From: a virus
Length of the DNA: 64,000 bases
IMG/VR virus record: IMGVR_UViG_3300036466_000103
Coordinates: 1 to 64,000 of that record
Direction: 5' to 3' (one strand)
The notes beneath the pieces were generated by a model. The model saw only the letters and a list, made by a program, of their open reading frames with translations. It did no database searches and was not told the origin of the DNA. The position numbers and the translations under genes were made by a program. This document shows, one piece after another, positions 1 through 49,407 of the stretch (the first letter of the stretch is position 1; every line of letters starts with the position of its first letter).

Positions 1-307
1 CTCTGTCCCCTCGGAGTCAAGGCACTGTAGTGCAGTGGTACTGGAAGAACAACGGTCGTGAGATTGATGGATTTGATCAACGTGTGATTGTCCCTACAGA
101 TGGAGAGATGATTGTACATGATGGTTGGCAGATCATGACCACCATGGCTTCTCAGCAAACAGCTGTGAAGTATGTTCCTCTTAAGAAATGTCTTCACTTC
201 CGACATAATCCCCAGAATGATAGCCCATCAGGGACGAGCCCACTAGTTTCCGCCTGGCAACCCTGGAAATTAAAGGTTGCTTTCCAGGAATCTGAGGCAA
301 TCGGGGT
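1..307 (+). CDS. portal protein (lambda gpB-type position), exon 1; 5' end lies outside the window
   Basis: The frame is open from the window edge. After removing the 308..616 intron it continues in phase into 617..1364. It lies directly upstream of the S49 protease, decoration and gpE-like capsid genes. Confidence 0.75.
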
Positions 308-616
308 TAATTAGTAGCCCCCTTGAGCAGAAATGCTCATTGAATAACTCATTTAATTGTCTGGGAACCCCTAACGTAAAGACGAGGGCAATCAGCAGCG
401 AAGTTAGTCATTCCTAACTAAAACAAGTTGGGTGCATGTGACTAAAACGTTCAACGACTATCCCGTGATGGGAGTAGGGCCAAGTGGCTCGAAATGGTGA
501 GAACCGAAACAGAAGCTGAACTTGCTGACGGTTAAGATATAGTCTGGTCTGCATGGAAACATGCAGCAGCTCTTAATTGAGCGGGTAGTGATTAACGACC
601 ACTATTGAACACAACG
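308..616 (+). ncRNA. group I self-splicing intron (IA2, T4 td-like), ORF-less
   Basis: P1 hairpin GGGGU|UAAUUAGUA/GCCCC (303-321) puts U307 in a wobble pair with G317. td-like core strings: AACGACUAUCCC (453-464), GGGAGUAGGGCCAAGUGGCUCGAAA (470-494), GUUAAGAUAUAGUCUGGUCUGCAUGGAAACAUGCAGC (531-567), GAUUAACGACC (590-600). The 3' end is ...GAACACAACG with terminal G616. The 309-nt length preserves the reading phase. Confidence 0.85.
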
Positions 617-4859: not shown

Positions 4860-5252
4860 ATGGCTTTCCATGACAGAATGAGGGCAATGGTGATACGTCA
4901 ACTTTCCCCACAACCAAAGGGTAAGGGTGTACTAGTCACAGCTACAAAGAGAGTTGGTGGAGGTTATGACCCTCGTACTGGTGAGACCACTCCGGTTGTT
5001 ATTGAGACATTAGTTGGAAGCGGCTTGAGAGTTAACTACTCAGAGTATTCATACACAAACTCCACTATTACATACGGTGACTTTCAGATCTATTTGTCCC
5101 CTGTGCTAGCTGACGGAAGTGGAGACATGCCTGAGCCAGCAATAAACGACAGTCTTGAGTTCTTGGGTAAGGACGTTACAGTGATTAATGTAAGTCCTTT
5201 TAATGAGAACAGCGTAGGTTGTGGTTGGAAGTTGCAGGTGAGATATGGCTAA
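4860..5252 (+). CDS. head-tail connector (FII position)
   Basis: Synteny. RBS AAGGAGG. Confidence 0.45.
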   Translation: MAFHDRMRAMVIRQLSPQPKGKGVLVTATKRVGGGYDPRTGETTPVVIETLVGSGLRVNYSEYSYTNSTITYGDFQIYLSPVLADGSGDMPEPAINDSLEFLGKDVTVINVSPFNENSVGCGWKLQVRYG

Positions 5253-31623: not shown

Positions 31624-33318
31624 GTGGAGAGAATTAAACATGATGTTGTGCACTGCACATCTGACAAGGGCCTACAAGTCTTTTACGATGATGGAAAGAA
31701 CAAGTTTACCGGCTACTGCTTTTCCTGTGCCAGCCGAGGACTTGAGGCTTACGTAGAAGATCCCTATAACGGTAAGGCACCAAAACCCCCAGGGAAAAGA
31801 TCTGAAGATGATGTACAAGAAGAAATCCAAGAAGTTCGAAACCTAAAATCTCCCGCTGAAGAGTATCGAGGCATTCATCCTCAGTATTTCGCAAAGTCTG
31901 GCATTAAGCTGGCTTACAGTGAATATGACGGAAAGACACCCTTTACATTCAATTTCCCCTATACAATCTCAGGAAAGCTGGCAGGCTACAAAGCAATTAT
32001 GCTTGGCAAGAAAGCTATGTGGTCTATCGGGGACATCAAGGGCGCAGACCTGTTCAACTGGGAGATTGCAAAGAAGTCTGGAGTTAAACGTCTCTACGTC
32101 ACTGAGGGTGAATTCGACTCAAGAGCCCTGGAGATGATGCTAGAGTCACATGCAAACAAACGCAAGAGTCAGTACAATAAGTTCGCAGTCACTAGTCTTC
32201 CTCACGGAGTAGGTAGTGCAGTAACCACACTTGGTCGGATGCGCAAAGAGATTGATAAGTTTTTTACTGAGATTGTGCTGGTATTTGATAATGATGAGGC
32301 AGGTAAGAAAGCAGTAAAAGATGTACAAAAGATTATGCCTGATGTTAAAGTTGCTGTTTATCCAACTAATGCTAAAGATGCCAACGAAGCTTTATTGAAA
32401 GGTGATGGTGATTTGTTTGCAGATTTCTGTATTTGGAAAAGTGCAAAACCTGTAAGCGAAGGCGTGGTAAACGTTTCCACTGTCTTGACTCGGGCACTTG
32501 AGCCACCTCAAATGGGGCTTTCTTATCCGTGGCAAGAGCTTACAGATATGGTCTATGGACAACGTTTTTCTGAGGCCACTTGTCTAGGTGCTGGTATCGG
32601 CCTCGGCAAAACTTTGATTGCTCATGAAGTTGGCGCGTGGAATATTACAGAACATAAAGAAAAAGTTTTCATGGTACTTCTTGAAGAAGAGAACGAACAT
32701 ACACTGTGGAACGTGGCAGGCAAGATTGATTCTATTCCGTATCACCGCCCTGAAATTGCCAAAGATAACTGGGAACAGTTTCAAGAGACTGCACGGAGCC
32801 TTGAGGGTAGTTTGTTAATGTGGGAATCTGAGGGTAATGCTGAAAACCGATTTAATATTGAGGAAATTCTCAAAGCAATTCGGTACAATACAATGGAATA
32901 TGGGGTTCGCTTTCATGTGATTGATAACATCACACGGCTTGTAGACCACTTGTCCAGTGGTGAAGCGAATGAATTTATTAATAAATGGTCATCTGAAATT
33001 GCAAACTTGGCATCTGAATTGAAAATCCATATTGATATGTTCAGCCACTTGAATGCACCGAAAGGAAAAGATGCAAGGGACCATGAGTCAGGTGGCGAAG
33101 TGTTGGCATCACAATTTACTGGTAGTCGCGGTATTATGCGTTCTTTCCCTGTGCTAATGGGGTTTGAGCGTAACAAAATGGCAACAGAAGGGCGAGCTTC
33201 TAATTCTTTTATTAGTTGCATTAAAAACCGTAAGTACGGTGGAGAAGGGCGGATTAAGACTCAGTATCAACCTAATGGTCGCCTCATCAGTTACCCATGG
33301 GAGGGTGAACAACTTTGA
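31624..33318 (+). CDS. bifunctional primase-helicase (T7 gp4-like)
   Basis: Zn-finger-like CTSDK..GYCFSC, TOPRIM LYVTEGEFD..VFDNDEAGKKA, Walker A GAGIGLGKT, and HVIDNITRL. The start is uncertain (GTG 31624 after GGAGG, or TTG 31585). Confidence 0.85.
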   Translation: MERIKHDVVHCTSDKGLQVFYDDGKNKFTGYCFSCASRGLEAYVEDPYNGKAPKPPGKRSEDDVQEEIQEVRNLKSPAEEYRGIHPQYFAKSGIKLAYSEYDGKTPFTFNFPYTISGKLAGYKAIMLGKKAMWSIGDIKGADLFNWEIAKKSGVKRLYVTEGEFDSRALEMMLESHANKRKSQYNKFAVTSLPHGVGSAVTTLGRMRKEIDKFFTEIVLVFDNDEAGKKAVKDVQKIMPDVKVAVYPTNAKDANEALLKGDGDLFADFCIWKSAKPVSEGVVNVSTVLTRALEPPQMGLSYPWQELTDMVYGQRFSEATCLGAGIGLGKTLIAHEVGAWNITEHKEKVFMVLLEEENEHTLWNVAGKIDSIPYHRPEIAKDNWEQFQETARSLEGSLLMWESEGNAENRFNIEEILKAIRYNTMEYGVRFHVIDNITRLVDHLSSGEANEFINKWSSEIANLASELKIHIDMFSHLNAPKGKDARDHESGGEVLASQFTGSRGIMRSFPVLMGFERNKMATEGRASNSFISCIKNRKYGGEGRIKTQYQPNGRLISYPWEGEQL

Positions 33319-33941
33319 AAGAGTTTATAAATGATGCCGATTACAAAGTAACAAAGATGGTTGATGGTAAACAAACTATGTGTCCATTCTTCAGGACATG
33401 GAGAAACATGAAAGAGAGGTGTAACAAAGCCAGCAAAAGAAATCCAAGTTATTTGGAATCTGGAGTTATTGACGACTGGTACACTTTCTCCAACTTCAAG
33501 GCTTGGATGGAAGGGCAACCATGGCAAGGTAATGAACTGGACAAGGACATACTAGGCGACGGCAAACTGTATAGTCCTAATACATGTTGTTTTGTACCCA
33601 GTTGGGTGAACTTGCTTTTGGTGCTAAGCAACTCAAGTCGCGGAGAATACCCGGTAGGTGTATCTTATATGAAGCGGCCTTCTGGTATGAGCAGAGAGTT
33701 GGTTAACCCTTACCAATCTTATGTTAAGAGCGGAGATAAGAAAAAGCACCTTGGTATGTTTTCAACAGCAATGCAAGCTCACAAAGCTTGGCAGGCAGAA
33801 AAGATTGTTTTAATGGAAGCTGCCGTGCTAAGGTACTCCGAAGATAGGAGCTTCCAACAGCCTGTATTTGATGCCCTACAATCAAAAGTCCTTGCTTTAC
33901 GACAGGATTTGGTAGAAAATAGGGAGACTGTTTCATTATGA
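33315..33941 (+). CDS. free-standing homing-endonuclease-like protein with an AP2-type C-terminal domain
   Basis: Paralog of 48763..49407 (TW.NM.ERC, F.AWM, LDKD...YSP.TC.F.P, P.GVS). Located between the primase-helicase and polymerase genes. Confidence 0.45.
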   Translation: MKEFINDADYKVTKMVDGKQTMCPFFRTWRNMKERCNKASKRNPSYLESGVIDDWYTFSNFKAWMEGQPWQGNELDKDILGDGKLYSPNTCCFVPSWVNLLLVLSNSSRGEYPVGVSYMKRPSGMSRELVNPYQSYVKSGDKKKHLGMFSTAMQAHKAWQAEKIVLMEAAVLRYSEDRSFQQPVFDALQSKVLALRQDLVENRETVSL

Positions 33942-33957: not shown

Positions 33958-35943
33958 TTGAAGAGTATCTATAACTGGAAGAAGGCAACCGTTGCCGACT
34001 TGGAGTCTGATGGATTTCTGGATGTTGCTACAAAGCTCCACGTCCTAGGCTTCCAGATGAATGAAAAGGACATTCAGACTTTTAATGGAACATCCGAGTC
34101 TGCCAGGATTGTAAAGTTTTTTCAGTGGCACATGGAGAATGAGATACCTATCGTAATGCACAAGGGTATTTCATTCGATATACCATTGATGGAGAAGTTG
34201 TTTAATATTGACCTCTCTAAGCTGATGCTTATCGACACACTGGCCCTTAGTTGGTACTTGAACTTCGACAGGCGAACCCACGGTCTGGGGACTTTTCACG
34301 AGGACTATGGAATTGAAAAGCCCGTAGTAGAGGACTGGTCAGATCAACCGTATGAGGTTTACCAAAATCGAGTTTGTGAAGACGTAAAGATTAACCAAGC
34401 ATTGTGGAAAGACCTCAAGCGACGCTTGATTGAGATGTACACAACTACCAAGCTTGAGATTGATTCTGGGGCTGTCGGCGGAAAGAGGGTCAGTGAAGAC
34501 GAGTCTATTGCAATTGATGAGTTAGTGGGTCTTCCTGTAGAGGAACACATTAATAGGATCTTAACCTTCTTAATGTTTAAGATGGACTGCGCCCGTCTAC
34601 AAGAAAAGACTCGCTGGGAGGTTGATACAGAACTTCTTTTTGACTCAGAGAAGAAACTTGAGGCAATCGTAAACGAAACAACCTTAGCCCTTGAGGCAGT
34701 CATGCCAAGGGTTCCTCAGTATACAAAGAAGGAAGCCCCAAAGAAGCCCTTCAAAAAGGACGGCACCTTATCATCAACAGGAACTAAATGGAAAGAGTTA
34801 CTAGAGGTATATGAAGCTAAAGAGGTTGATGAGTTCGGAACCTTAAAAGTCGAGGACACTGAAACTAAAGGAGTATTCAAAGCCCTTAGTGGCTATGATG
34901 AGCCAAAGGCATCCTCTCCTGCTCAAGTAAAAGCTTTGCTGTACTCGCATGGATGGGTTCCTACAAGCTTTCGTTATGAGAAAGACGAGGTTGCCTTTAA
35001 TGCCTGGATAGCCAGAAAGCCAAAAGAGGGTTCACATAACAGCAAATGGTCTGAGTGGAAGAACAGCAAGCCTGAAGAAAGGGCTATCCCACAAATTAGT
35101 GTTGGGGGCGATGACGGAAAGGAACTCTGTGAATCTGTTCTTGAGTTGGCAGATGAAGTGCCATCCATTCGTAAGTATGCAGAGTACAACGTAGCTAAAC
35201 ATCGGCTAGGGGTTATCAAAGGATTCATTCGGGACATCAAAGATGGAAAGTGGCTCCAAGCGAGGATTGGGGGCCTAACTAATACATTAAGAGTACAACA
35301 TAGGGAAATTGTAAACCTGCCTGGTGTAGACAAGCCTCATGGAGAGTTGATTCGTGGAGGGCTTGTTGCGGGAGAGGGAAAAATTCTCTTGGGTTCCGAC
35401 ATGTCTAGCTTGGAGGATCGGGTTAAACACAGCCTGATGCTGCCTCATGATCCTGAGTATGTTGCAACAATGCAAGAGGAAGACTTCGATCCCCACATTC
35501 TTATGGCTCTTACGGCAAAAATGATTAGCCAGAAGGAGTTTGATGATTTTAAGCGGGGTGAGAAGTCTTCTAACGCAAAGGCAGCCCGGAAAAAGGGTAA
35601 GACAACCAACTATGCATCTGTGTACAATGCAGGCGCTGCAAAAATTGCTCAGGCAGCGGGAGTAAGCCTAAAAGAAGGCAAAACTCTCCACGAGGCTTAC
35701 TGGAAGCTTAATTGGTCTGTAAAAGCTATTGCTGAAGAGCAGGTTGTTATCAAAGACAGCCGAGGTCGTAAGTGGTTGGTTAACCCGATTAATGGGTTTT
35801 GTTATGCCTTGAGGTCTGAGGCAGACAGGTTTTCTACTTTGGCCCAGGGTAGCGGCTCCTACTTCTTTGATATGTGGGTGGATAATATCCTCACAGAGAC
35901 AGAGAAAAGGTATGGCAAGAAAACGCTAACAGGAAGTTTCCAT
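33958..35943 (+). CDS. family A DNA polymerase, exon 1 (3'-5' exonuclease, thumb, and palm through motif B)
   Basis: TTG start after AAGGAG. Contains a TNYASVYNAG-type motif B region. The frame would otherwise stop 9 codons into the intron. Confidence 0.85.
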
Positions 35944-36193
35944 AAACATCATTGTGGCCTTGCATTGTGAAGTGCATTGAATAACTTTGCTTAAACGGGG
36001 AAAGCTAAAGGATGCGCAAGAGTCCCATGCTAACCTACCGTGCTAAATTGTCGAGAGACATAAAAGCCTAGAGACTATCCTTCGGGAGTAAGCAGAGAGT
36101 TCTGCTGAAATAGCAAAGAGCCTCCCTTTGAGGCTGTGATATAGTCCGACACCAGTTGAAAAGCTGGGTGCCTAACGAGCACAAAACAGTAGG
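35944..36193 (+). ncRNA. group I self-splicing intron (IA2, td-like), ORF-less
   Basis: The 5' exon ends in CCAU (35940-43), which can pair with GUGG (35954-57). Core strings: UAAACGGGGAA (35991-36001), CCGUGCUAAAUUGU (36038-51), GACUAUCC..GGGAGUAAGC (36073-), GAUAUAGUCC (36138-47). Terminal G at 36193. Removal restores ...GSFH/DECIL.... Confidence 0.8.
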
Positions 36194-36352
36194 GATGAAT
36201 GCATCTTGTGTGTGAAGGATACACAAAAATTTAAAGATGAGTTTTCTTCTTTAATAAGATCTGCCGTAGAAAAGGTAAATGTAGATTTCAAGCTTCGAAG
36301 AGCATTGGGCTGTGAGACTCAGTCTGGTAAGCGATATTCAGATATTCACTAG
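36194..36352 (+). CDS. family A DNA polymerase, exon 2 (motif C HDE through the C-terminus)
   Basis: Encodes DECILCVKDTQKF...GKRYSDIH*. The HDE motif spans the junction, and the ending G..Y..IH is typical of a Pol A C-terminus. Confidence 0.8.
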   Translation, partial: DECILCVKDTQKFKDEFSSLIRSAVEKVNVDFKLRRALGCETQSGKRYSDIH

Positions 36353-36362
36353 AGGAGGGAAA

Positions 36363-36899
36363 ATGAGGGAAGTTTGGAAACCGATAATTCTTGATGATAT
36401 TCAAGAGCGTTATGCTGTTAGTAATCTAGGTAAAATTATTGATCTTAAGACTGGTAAATGTTTAGTCTGTCACGATAATGGTGCCGGATATATGAATGTG
36501 GGTTTACAGGGACCAAAGTCAAAGGTCAGGATTCGTTACGTACACAGGTTGGTAGCTATTGCATTTCTTGAGAACCCTGATAAACTACCCCAAGTTGGTC
36601 ATCGTGACCATACAAGATCTAATAACGTTGTCTATAATCTATACTGGACAACACAGAAACAGAATACCCGTGACGGGATTGATGCAGGGAGAATTAATGC
36701 CAATCGGCCAAAGACAAACCGAAAAGTAACAGAAGCTATTATTTGTGAGATTGTTCTGCTGCATAGTCAAGGTAGAGGCATCAACGAAATTGCCGGAATG
36801 CTGGGCTTTCCTCGTACCACCATCTCTAGCGTCTTCAATGGCAGGAGCAATAAAGAGCTGTTTGTGTTTGCAAGCAACGAGCTTAAAAATAATCCTTGA
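36363..36899 (+). CDS. HNH homing endonuclease (NUMOD4-like N-terminus, C-terminal HTH)
   Basis: WKPI..YAVSNLGKI, HRLVAIAF, HRDHTRSNNVVYNLYWTTQKQN, and GINEIAGMLGFPRTTISSV. RBS AGGAGGG. Begins 11 nt after polymerase exon 2. Confidence 0.8.
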   Translation: MREVWKPIILDDIQERYAVSNLGKIIDLKTGKCLVCHDNGAGYMNVGLQGPKSKVRIRYVHRLVAIAFLENPDKLPQVGHRDHTRSNNVVYNLYWTTQKQNTRDGIDAGRINANRPKTNRKVTEAIICEIVLLHSQGRGINEIAGMLGFPRTTISSVFNGRSNKELFVFASNELKNNP

Positions 36900-36923
36900 C
36901 AACACACCCACATGAAGTAGAAT
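36896..36923 (+). promoter_or_regulatory. sigma70-type promoter
   Basis: TTGACA-16 nt-TAGAAT. Confidence 0.6.
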
Positions 36924-44257: not shown

Positions 44258-45031
44258 TTGAAGCATTTGATTATCGCAGATACACAAGTAAAACCGGGGC
44301 ACGATTTGAATTACCTCTCTGCCATTGGGGAGTATATTGCCAGCAAGAAGCCTGATGTAATCGTTCACATTGGAGACCACTTTGATTTTGAAAGCCTGAG
44401 TTCTTACGATAAAGGTAAGAAAAGCTTTGAAGGTCGCAGGGTCAAAGCAGACTTGGATGTTGGTCATGAAGGTATGAAGCTTATTATGGAGCCGATCCAA
44501 CGCCTACAAAATGCCCAAAGAAAGGCCAAGAAGAAGGTCTACGATCCTAAAATGGTCTTCTGCCTAGGTAATCATGAAGCTCGTGCTGATCGGTTTGCAA
44601 ACGATAACCCAGAGTTCACAGGATTCTTAGGCACAGAGCAACTAGGGCTTGAGCAGTATGGTTGGAAAGTATACCCATACCTGCAACCAGCAGTTATTGA
44701 TGGTATCAACTACGTCCACTACCTTGCCAACCCTTTCACAGGTAAACCCTACGGGGGTAGTGCACTTAATCAGCTAAAGAATGTTGGATGCTCTTTTGTA
44801 GTTGGTCATAAACAACTCATCGATTGTGCAATCCGCCCAACGCTGGAAGGTAAGATGCAGATTGGTATTATTAATGGCGCATGTTATCCGTTCGACGAAC
44901 CGTACAAAGGGCATCAGGGGAACTACCACTTCCGTGGTCTGACAATGCTACACGAAGTTAAAGATGGGTTTGGTTGTCCGATGTTTGTTTCACTAGATTT
45001 TATTATGGATAAGTATGGGAAAGAAAACTGA
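44258..45031 (+). CDS. calcineurin-like metallophosphoesterase
   Basis: ADTQVKPGH, HIGDHFD and GNHE motifs. TTG start 7 nt after GGAGG. Confidence 0.7.
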   Translation: MKHLIIADTQVKPGHDLNYLSAIGEYIASKKPDVIVHIGDHFDFESLSSYDKGKKSFEGRRVKADLDVGHEGMKLIMEPIQRLQNAQRKAKKKVYDPKMVFCLGNHEARADRFANDNPEFTGFLGTEQLGLEQYGWKVYPYLQPAVIDGINYVHYLANPFTGKPYGGSALNQLKNVGCSFVVGHKQLIDCAIRPTLEGKMQIGIINGACYPFDEPYKGHQGNYHFRGLTMLHEVKDGFGCPMFVSLDFIMDKYGKEN

Positions 45032-45710
45032 TTTATCAGGACAGACATTTGGACGTTGGACAGTACTCTACAGGTCACAAGAGCGAGCAGCAGATAACAG
45101 AAAGAAATATATTTGTGAATGCTCTTGTGGTACTGTTCGACAAGTAGATGGAAGACGCCTTACAGGAGGTACAAGTAATTCTTGTGGCTGTGCAATGATA
45201 GAGGGTGTTAAAGAAAGGTTCATAACTCACGGTATGACTGGTACACCTACATACGGATCTTGGGCTAATATGAAACAAAGATGCACCAATCCTGAGAATG
45301 AAGAGTGGGAGAATTATGGAGGTCGTGGTATTCAACTGCTAGATGGTTGGGAAGACTTCCAGAGGTTCTTCGAAGATATGGGCGAAGCTCCTGATGGCTT
45401 AAGTGTTGATCGTATTGACGTAAATGGGCACTACTCCAAGGAAAATTGTAGATGGTCTGACAATGGAGTACAGAGTCATGGAAGACGTAAACTTATCTAT
45501 AAAAACACAACTAATCCCTCAAGATTTATTGGGGTTGTGTGGCACAAGTTTTCACAGAAGTGGAGAGTTAAGCTTGTGTTTAAAGGTAAAACAATTATAG
45601 ATAAGAACTTTACAGATGATGTAGAAGCTGCCATACTCTATGACAAATTATCTAAGGAATATTATGGTGACGAACCAAACAAAGAATTGTTGTCTAATAT
45701 TGCGGGGTAA
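45015..45710 (+). CDS. homing-endonuclease-like protein (Cys-rich N-terminus, HNH-like core, AP2 domain)
   Basis: GRWTVL..YICECSCG..SCGC, YGSWANMKQRC, YGGRGI, DRIDVNGHYSKENCRW, and an AP2-like segment FIGVVWHKFSQKWRVKL..AAILYDKLSKEYYG. Confidence 0.55.
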   Translation: MGKKTDLSGQTFGRWTVLYRSQERAADNRKKYICECSCGTVRQVDGRRLTGGTSNSCGCAMIEGVKERFITHGMTGTPTYGSWANMKQRCTNPENEEWENYGGRGIQLLDGWEDFQRFFEDMGEAPDGLSVDRIDVNGHYSKENCRWSDNGVQSHGRRKLIYKNTTNPSRFIGVVWHKFSQKWRVKLVFKGKTIIDKNFTDDVEAAILYDKLSKEYYGDEPNKELLSNIAG

Positions 45711-48321: not shown

Positions 48322-48770
48322 GTGAAATGGCAGTAGAAAAGTTTGATCAACCAATGGAGTTCGATCAATACCTTGGTCAACTTGATATGGAAAAGCATCC
48401 ATTGTGGAAAAAAGCTTGGGTTGATCAAGACAAAGAAGCATTCGAACAGATCCTAGAAGACTTGGGTGCTGATATAAGTTACGGCTATGACTTCCGAGTA
48501 TGCCTGCATCGTAGTCGAATGACTAACCAGGTTGAGTATGGTGTTCGTGTTGGATTCAAAGAACGTACAGACAAGTGGTGGACAGCAAACATGCTAAGCG
48601 TAGAAGACCTAGTACGCACTACTCGTGGTAGTATACGAGCAACGGGAATGAAGGAAGCGTTAAATCAAGAAACACCCCTATCTGCATACGTTGAGGATCA
48701 GATGGCTAAATCCATAATGCATGTGGAGAAAAGTGTAGTGAAAGTTGACAGGGTGTGCTTAGATGTTTAA
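48318..48770 (+). CDS. hypothetical protein
   Basis: ATGA overlap with thyX. Confidence 0.65.
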   Translation: MSEMAVEKFDQPMEFDQYLGQLDMEKHPLWKKAWVDQDKEAFEQILEDLGADISYGYDFRVCLHRSRMTNQVEYGVRVGFKERTDKWWTANMLSVEDLVRTTRGSIRATGMKEALNQETPLSAYVEDQMAKSIMHVEKSVVKVDRVCLDV

Positions 48771-49407
48771 TAGAAACAAAAGCCATAGGAAGCTAGTCTA
48801 TGGTGTTGGTATAAATGATGCTGATTATGCTGTAATTTGGAGACCTGACCCAACAAACCGAAAATTACAACAAACTTGCCCTTACTATGAAAAGTGGCGT
48901 GGTATGTTTCAACGGTGCTATTCAGAAATATTCAAAGGGAGGTACCCTACATATAAAGACTGTGAAGTGTGCCCAGAATGGCACCACTTTATGGAGTTTC
49001 GTGCGTGGATGGTAGAACAAGAATGGGAAGGTAAGTCTTTGGATAAAGACTTGAAGTGCAGAGGGAATAAAATTTACAGCCCTGAAACTTGCTTATTTAT
49101 ACCACAAGAGGTTAATACCTTCTTGAATTTACAAGAAAGGCAAAGAGGTGAACTCCCGATAGGAGTAAGTTTACGGGACGGTAAGTTCAGATCAACTATC
49201 CGTCGAGAAGGTAAACAAAGGGCGTTGGGTTACTTTTCTTCTCCAGAAGAGGCACATCGTGAATGGTTAAAAGCTAAGCTGGAGCAGGCTGCTGAGTTAG
49301 CATCTAAGTATACTGGTGAAGTTTCATACAGGATACTGGAGTGGTATGGGTTGACCTGTTCAGTTGTGGACAGTGACTGTAATAAATCGAATGAGGTGAA
49401 AGTATGA
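48763..49407 (+). CDS. free-standing homing-endonuclease-like protein with an AP2-type C-terminal domain
   Basis: Paralog of 33315..33941. Confidence 0.45.
   Translation: MFNRNKSHRKLVYGVGINDADYAVIWRPDPTNRKLQQTCPYYEKWRGMFQRCYSEIFKGRYPTYKDCEVCPEWHHFMEFRAWMVEQEWEGKSLDKDLKCRGNKIYSPETCLFIPQEVNTFLNLQERQRGELPIGVSLRDGKFRSTIRREGKQRALGYFSSPEEAHREWLKAKLEQAAELASKYTGEVSYRILEWYGLTCSVVDSDCNKSNEVKV

Follow-up and report, generated by a model that had tools for sequence, protein, structure and literature searches.

Experimental demonstrations of collaborative or trans homing come from only a few phage systems, namely the psbA gene of S-PM2, the polymerase gene of T3/PhiI, and nrdB of T4. [quoted passage not shown] In T4, the free-standing HNH enzyme MobE mobilizes the nrdB intron, which is accompanied by the defunct I-TevIII (PMC2790892). 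The polymerase introns of the T7-like phages PhiI and W31 are inserted at E. coli Pol I position 881 (PMC3428280), and marker exclusion has been described for I-HmuI and I-HmuII.

We analyzed a window of 64,000 nucleotides, the first 64 kb of the IMG/VR record IMGVR_UViG_3300036466_000103 (96,568 bp, with direct terminal repeats), in which the 3' end of a family A DNA polymerase gene holds a group I intron and is followed by an HNH endonuclease gene (Table 1). PhiI and W31 share with the window both the host gene and the insertion site (H/DE in motif C, the slash marking the insertion), a match made to codon resolution through the published numbering: E. coli Pol I position 881 is the His of motif C, and the insertion in the window lies directly after the H of HDE. 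The HNH gene 5.3 of T3 starts about 10 nt past the polymerase stop codon, as the HNH gene of the window does; Bonocora and Shub reportedly treated T3 gene 5.3 and I-TslI of PhiI/W31 at the T7-like polymerase gene in 2009. Among relatives of the window, we found both published states of the T3/PhiI system, that is, an HNH gene behind an intron-less polymerase gene and an intron with an internal HNH; the state with an ORF-less intron and a free-standing HNH gene is not known to have been described for T3 or PhiI. T3 gp5.3 (101 aa) was also tried as a homolog of the 178-aa HNH protein and gave no alignment.

[quoted passage not shown] The host gene in S-PM2 is psbA, whereas it is DNA polymerase in the window, and the enzyme is the Endo VII-like F-CphI, whereas the window encodes an I-HmuI-like HNH protein whose cleavage activity is predicted. 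MobE of T4 is promoter-less, co-transcribed with its upstream gene, and a nicking enzyme that mobilizes a neighboring intron unable to move unaided, and by analogy the HNH gene of the window may be likened to it. However, the T4 intron retains a dead endonuclease ORF, whereas the intron in the window has none, and the host gene and nuclease subfamily of T4 are unlike those of the window. The closest solved structure and sequence relative of the HNH protein is I-HmuI of Bacillus phage SPO1 (1U3E), which has the same length and domain order and is likewise tied to a phage family A polymerase gene, but is encoded inside its intron, at polymerase position 674 (PMC3428280).

Anatomy of the polymerase intron and the adjoining endonuclease gene

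The polymerase of the window is 58% identical to Pseudomonas myophage polymerases of the Otagovirus/Flaumdravirus type. Exon 1 ends in ...LTGSFH with CAT as its final codon, and its frame reads 9 codons into the intron before meeting a stop. Excision of the intron joins the exons in phase (...GSFH-DECIL...) and gives a 714-aa Pol A in which the HDE of motif C is restored. The spliced product ends in a C-terminal His like every intron-less relative aligned, and it aligns to the ends of these relatives, which terminate with His 153–159 nt past the H codon.

Table 1. Features of the intron–endonuclease locus, in window coordinates.
Feature	Position	Strand	Details and evidence
Second free-standing endonuclease-like gene (phrog_953 HNH type)	33315..33941	+	phrog_953, E 5e-73
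DNA polymerase (family A) exon 1	33958..35943	+	662 codons; ORF, Pfam DNA_pol_A / RNase_H_2
ORF-less group I intron	35944..36193	+	250 nt; between H and DE of motif C; RF00028
Polymerase exon 2	36194..36352	+	159 nt; 52 codons + TAG; DECILCVKD...RYSDIH-stop
Shine-Dalgarno AGGAGGG of HNH gene	36353..36359	+	read off sequence
Free-standing I-HmuI-like homing endonuclease gene (NUMOD4 + HNH + C-terminal HTH)	36363..36899	+	178 aa; Pfam, PHROG
Sigma-70-like promoter of next transcription unit	36896..36923	+	TTGACA-16-TAGAAT, 11/12 matches (promoter scan)

RF00028 covers 35934–36168 with 50.5 bits (gathering score, 50; E 9e-12) in focused and whole-genome searches; Rfam at the gathering threshold missed the polymerase intron on the whole window, and the focused search found it. 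The P1 helix (CCAUAA/UUGUGG) places a U.G pair at the 5' splice site, with the last exon bases CCAU pairing with GUGG, and the last intron base is G36193, directly before exon 2 (GAUGAA). Across 12 homologous introns, the P1 pairs are invariant and compensatory changes keep 31 of the 50 pairs of the consensus fold; RF00028 scores of homologous introns include 54.6 (L023) and 79 (L119). The first-pass annotation had called the intron ORF-less, and indeed no plus-strand ORF of at least 20 aa was found inside it besides the run-on of exon 1. [quoted passage not shown] The genome holds two further ORF-less group I introns, one in the portal gene (window 298–566, 96.8 bits) and one near the 3' end of an apparent terminase large subunit gene (95499–95794 of the full record, L004:1501–1796; 54 bits), and the strings UUGAAUAAC and GAUAUAGUC are among those common to all three.

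The stretch from exon 1 through the intron and exon 2 to the HNH gene was found unbroken, at 90–99% identity, in wastewater metagenome contigs from other studies. No exon 1–exon 2 joint across the intron was found in the wastewater contigs, a result that is silent on splicing. A megablast search of the cultured-phage collection with the whole region gave no match, nor did blastn with the intron; within this analysis, the intron/polymerase lineage thus appears to be one seen in metagenomes only. In addition, a low-depth wastewater contig (corresponding to window 36135–36210) carries the 3' end of the intron fused to a different, L028/L057-like exon 2, and so the intron seems to be present in a second polymerase allele of that sample.

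The first-pass annotation had described an HNH/NUMOD4 gene with its own AGGAGGG ribosome-binding site directly behind the 159-nt exon 2. This description was borne out: the AGGAGGG was found, and the ATG lies 10 nt past the polymerase stop codon and 169 nt from the intron insertion site. In Pfam, the product matched NUMOD4 above the cut-off (9.6e-8), HNH_3 just under the curated cut-off (5.8e-5; 23.1 bits against 24.8), and HTH models below their cut-offs, and it also matched the HNH endonuclease families phrog_59 and phrog_959. NCBIfam gave no match for the HNH protein or for the second polymerase type. The sequence match to I-HmuI (1U3E) had an E-value of 1.5e-14 over residues 13–123. An AlphaFold model (pLDDT, 81.7) searched with Foldseek against the PDB gave 1U3E as its sole match with E <0.001 (174 columns; TM, 0.56), at 26% identity over this structure-based alignment. 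The match spans the full length of the protein, and the two share their fold and the order of domains: an N-terminal sheet, a beta-beta-alpha-metal core, helices, and a C-terminal HTH. By sequence and by predicted fold, the HNH protein is evidently a member of the I-HmuI family.

H80 and N101 align with the catalytic His (H75) and Asn (N96) of I-HmuI, and His80, Asn92, Asn101, and Asp82/His83 are invariant among 13 relatives. The position of Asp74 in I-HmuI is occupied by Gly79, as in nearly all members of the clade (QVGH[KR]DH), with Ala in L009. Asp74 is reportedly a metal-binding residue, according to the paper on the I-HmuI structure; D82 and H83 of the HNH protein might be substitutes for the missing Asp. 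Two relatives, L017 and L018, have an in-frame stop in the gene; the window and its wastewater relatives have an uninterrupted ORF.

The −35 hexamer of the promoter listed in Table 1 overlaps the stop codon of the HNH gene, and it is here that the HNH cassette ends on its right side. Since no promoter-like or terminator-like site was found between the polymerase and HNH genes, the HNH gene is probably read from the polymerase transcript. The second endonuclease-like gene sits between the primase-helicase and polymerase genes; it counts as a neighbor of the intron/HNH pair rather than as a demonstrated member. No homolog of it was found in the L006 locus, an intron- and HNH-bearing relative on the same contig as L023. 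The replication region of the window contains three free-standing endonuclease-like genes of the phrog_953/374 type in total, the others lying at 45015–45710 and 48763–49407.

Distribution and mobility of the intron and the HNH gene

Within the close kin of this polymerase, the intron is present in three members: the window itself, L023, and L026. For L023 and L026, the nearest allele lacks the intron (L024 and L027, respectively; both at 85.9% nucleotide identity), and the closest polymerase relative of the window is the intron-bearing L023 (76.7%; 89% identical in exon 1). Among these three carriers, the introns are 84–90% alike, versus 72–77% for the exons. Among the first 17 bases of exon 2, L026 and L027 differ at four, and at all four L026 agrees with L023, which indicates a short co-conversion tract in L026. 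L023 and L024 are 86–99% identical over the first 1400 nt and about 80% over the next 500 nt; from about 60 nt upstream of the insertion site, the identity drops to about 55% and remains at that level as far as the HNH gene, with the intron and exon 2 included. This mosaic break at the site is also in keeping with collaborative homing.

We searched for the intron lineage in IMG/VR by the intron's own 5' element. A first, loose pattern with 15 fixed bases yielded mostly chance matches, and a stricter pattern was used instead. Besides that of the window, at least four polymerase types (at least five in all) had the same lineage after the His of HDE; some of them are only about 23% identical to the window's polymerase. 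In the PolA4 tree, which is based on a polymerase-based sample, the intron occurs in at least eight clades with intron-less sisters. By these comparisons, the intron is evidently mobile. It is ORF-less throughout this lineage, except for a 740-nt form with an internal 130-aa HNH_3 ORF in L253 and L260. The 5' element, AUUGUGGCC...UUGAAUAAC, was also seen at L249:4073–4107 (IMGVR_UViG_3300045988_173416, a 266,862-bp contig) after ...KKGAIHAH, in a seemingly different gene where the exon end is also CCAU.

Relatives' polymerase genes contain other insertions as well. In Vibrio phage vB_CoeS_P1 (PV206818.1; L088, 998–4313), an in-frame, mini-intein-like insertion of about 130 aa (TNYAC...GNC) lies in motif B, and the polymerase gene is followed by a 264-aa endonuclease-like gene that is annotated as HNH endonuclease and resembles the AP2-type genes of the window. 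In Pseudomonas phages of the KIL type, the same position in motif B holds about 1 kb of inserted sequence, and the gene is annotated there as a joined CDS; L077, L086, and L073 have insertions of 0.5–0.9 kb at polymerase residues of about 514–555. Rfam did not recognize the insertions of KIL4, L077, L086, and L073 (about 1 kb or 0.5 kb) as group I introns.

Relatives of the HNH protein form at least 197 protein clusters, the best 120 of which are 54–94% identical to it. Those 59–80% identical always lie directly behind a polymerase gene, which may be of this Pol A type, of two to three other Pol A types, or of family B. These Pol A types are only 24–39% identical, and the family B polymerase belongs to phrog_1252 with the motifs DxxSYYPN, KLALNGVYG, and NTDG. 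Members of the HNH clade (60–78% identical) follow phrog_1252 in L007, L008, L010–L015, L017–L020, and L103–L109 (HNH start at 5001 or 3501); at some family B loci, the HNH start codon lies within the 3' end of the polymerase ORF. The closest HNH relatives, at up to 78%, follow family B polymerases without an HDE site near the end, so that a position behind a polymerase gene does not alone indicate motif C. For these family B neighbors, the HNH target must be a different one. The HNH tree is incongruent with polymerase type. The HNH ORF of L006 ends in the very promoter sequence that lies directly after the polymerase gene in the HNH-less L057, and the region downstream of the polymerase gene is hypervariable among relatives. 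The HNH gene is thus, as far as sequence comparison tells, a separately moving, promoter-less cassette. On one 4-kb contig (L124:1–4030), the end of a family A polymerase gene and an HNH gene are followed by a family B polymerase gene on the opposite strand.

In unbiased polymerase-based samples, an endonuclease gene lay directly behind the polymerase gene in 6 of 12 intron-bearing lineages versus 12 of 105 intron-less lineages (one-sided Fisher's exact test, p = 0.003; odds ratio, about 8). About 11–18% of intron-less loci had an endonuclease gene there, and the enrichment beside intron-bearing alleles was five- to eight-fold. These tests count loci or clusters, with shared descent handled roughly, by clustering and tree inspection, and endonucleases were detected by comparison with a set of known sequences, by which at least one gene (L338) was overlooked. 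The enzyme behind the intron-bearing polymerase gene was an I-HmuI-like HNH in the window, L023, L153, L212, L252, and L328, a GIY-YIG/NUMOD3 enzyme in L130 and L279, and a phrog_374 HNH in L259.

The two elements also occur apart. The intron had no adjoining nuclease gene in L026 and several others, amounting to half of the intron-bearing loci, and most HNH-bearing loci lack the intron, with an HNH gene behind an intron-less polymerase gene in phage vB_PsaM_M1, L009, L016, and many others. L261 and L289, from one sample, have polymerase tails that are 99% identical and both hold the intron, but only L261 has the GIY-YIG gene. Because the intron alone and the HNH gene alone are both found, neither element depends on the other. 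The first-pass annotation had held that independent segregation of the two among relatives would refute its reading, and such segregation is partly seen. Under the published model, in which the partners evolve separately, a solitary intron and a solitary HNH gene are expected.

Within one intron lineage, we found an HNH gene behind an intron-less polymerase gene, an ORF-less intron together with a nuclease gene, and an intron that encloses an HNH ORF. Every stage of the published pathway is thus represented in this lineage. The suggestion that the arrangement is an intermediate toward endonuclease-containing introns fits L253 and L260, where the same intron lineage has the HNH ORF inside.

Codons at the insertion site

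PolA4 polymerases have a nearly invariant sequence around the intron position (QQ[LM]IAYH/DEAQ). Among intron-less carriers of NUMOD4-HNH genes, AYH was rewritten in four of five lineages, to QCH, AMH, HAH, and MSH, and these recoded carriers are scattered in separate clades beside AYH sisters. Nuclease-less PolA4 lineages had altered codons in 2 of 46 cases. In the PolA2 family, Phe or Met precedes the His in all 40 nuclease-less lineages; the only four nuclease-bearing loci all have Ala or Tyr there (QAH or QYH), and the HNH protein of one of them, L340, is 75% identical to that of the window. When the families were pooled, rewritten codons were present in 6 of 7 intron-less HNH lineages versus 2 of about 86 controls (p = 2.5e-7). 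Carriers that bear the intron retain the wild-type codon, which is SFH in the window and L023 and AYH in L328 and L333. There were exceptions: L262 has only the HNH gene and is unaltered, and L278 and L317 are altered without an HNH gene. The insertion-site bases of a few distant HNH carriers showed no pattern by themselves; the pattern appeared only against family-wide baselines.

The rewritten codons in intron-less HNH carriers suggest that the target of the nuclease probably overlaps the insertion site. On the simplest reading of these sequences, the nuclease would recognize DNA that includes codons 5' of the insertion site, and a carrier would have to disarm its own site, either by the intron or by recoding. 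Such an either-or arrangement is what collaborative homing requires, according to the published accounts of its requirements (PMC3984707, PMC2988022), and it is similar to the trans homing by MobE of T4 (PMC2790892).

The polymerases of L340, L341, and L342 (IMG/VR contigs 3300042013_000018, 3300020047_004684, and 3300036466_000082) are 92–95% alike and have the recoded QAH in common; the slot is filled by an I-HmuI-like HNH gene at two of these loci and by a GIY-YIG gene at the third. One nuclease thus seems to have replaced another in a background that was resistant beforehand.

Explanations for the pairing of intron and endonuclease

We consider it probable that the intron and the HNH gene make up a two-part selfish element at the 3' end of a phage polymerase gene. 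The HNH gene, lying without a promoter of its own between the polymerase stop codon and the next promoter, would probably be co-transcribed with the polymerase gene. During mixed infection, its enzyme would nick or cut a related phage's intron-less polymerase gene, either at the insertion site or next to it. With the carrier genome as the template for repair, the recipient would acquire the intron, the HNH gene, or both. The carrier's own recognition site would be interrupted by the intron and thereby protected, and HNH carriers without the intron would gain the same protection through rewritten codons at the site. The observed features are the anatomy of the locus, the families to which the two parts belong, the patchy and recurrent way in which they are distributed, the statistical association between them, and the pattern of either an intron or rewritten codons; splicing in vivo, the position of cleavage, the choice between nicking and double-strand cutting, and the direction of transfer are the steps that this scheme presumes. 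Trans mobilization of the intron by the HNH enzyme, as put forward in the first-pass annotation, gains support from comparison in three respects, namely the enrichment of endonuclease genes beside intron-bearing alleles, the rewritten codons, and the mosaic and co-conversion signals that start from the site.

Alternatively, the two might be independent selfish elements that share a recombination hot spot, with the slot after the polymerase gene tolerating any promoter-less endonuclease gene. The HNH enzyme would then cut elsewhere or at a host-specific site, and the intron would owe its spread to ordinary homologous recombination or to other nucleases. The slot is shared by three unrelated endonuclease families, the HNH clade is also found behind family B and other Pol A types with an incongruent tree, about 11–18% of intron-less loci have an endonuclease gene there anyway, and the region downstream of the polymerase gene is hypervariable, all of which would be in keeping with such a hot spot. 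However, it would leave unexplained why intron-less HNH carriers are recoded at the insertion site while intron carriers keep wild-type codons, and why endonuclease genes are enriched five- to eight-fold at intron-bearing alleles; we regard this explanation as unlikely, though one to be taken seriously.

The replacement of the I-HmuI metal ligand D74 by Gly, together with the in-frame stops in L017 and L018, could also mean that the HNH protein is an inactive or domesticated remnant, in which DNA binding by NUMOD4/HTH was perhaps kept but cutting was lost, leaving the intron stranded; a defunct partner has a precedent in I-TevIII of T4 (PMC2790892). Yet the Gly is common to a clade comprising at least 197 protein clusters, which plainly continues to move between phages, the residues His80, Asn92, Asn101, and Asp82/His83 are invariant, and neither the window nor the wastewater relatives have an interrupted ORF; we find a remnant improbable. 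We give still less credence to the idea that the enzyme serves mainly as a weapon between phages, causing marker exclusion by damaging a co-infecting polymerase gene regardless of transfer, with the intron as a protective patch. I-HmuI and I-HmuII reportedly cut DNA with the intron as well as DNA without it (PMC3428280), and the pattern of either an intron or rewritten codons speaks of protection of the carrier, not of transfer. This idea largely overlaps with the two-part element, as repair from the carrier would copy the intron anyway, and the co-conversion signatures point to transfer.

With the two-part element as the preferred reading, the window locus would add a different nuclease family at the motif C site of the polymerase to the few systems described. 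It may further be, though we hold this somewhat less likely than not, that uncultured phages hold every proposed birth stage of a mobile intron (an empty site, a nuclease alone with recoding, an intron alone, an intron with a free-standing nuclease from three families, and a nuclease inside the intron), that the intron and recoding serve as interchangeable protection, and that the HNH clade is a specialist of the polymerase 3' end, having jumped time and again among unrelated polymerase genes of families A and B. A natural series of more than 200 environmental loci is available for testing the collaborative-homing model, which predicts here that the enzyme would cut the wild-type ...TTCCAT/GATGAR... 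junction and spare intron-containing and QAH-type alleles. For the phages themselves, this would mean that even essential codons at the catalytic site of the polymerase can be reshaped under the pressure of a selfish nuclease.
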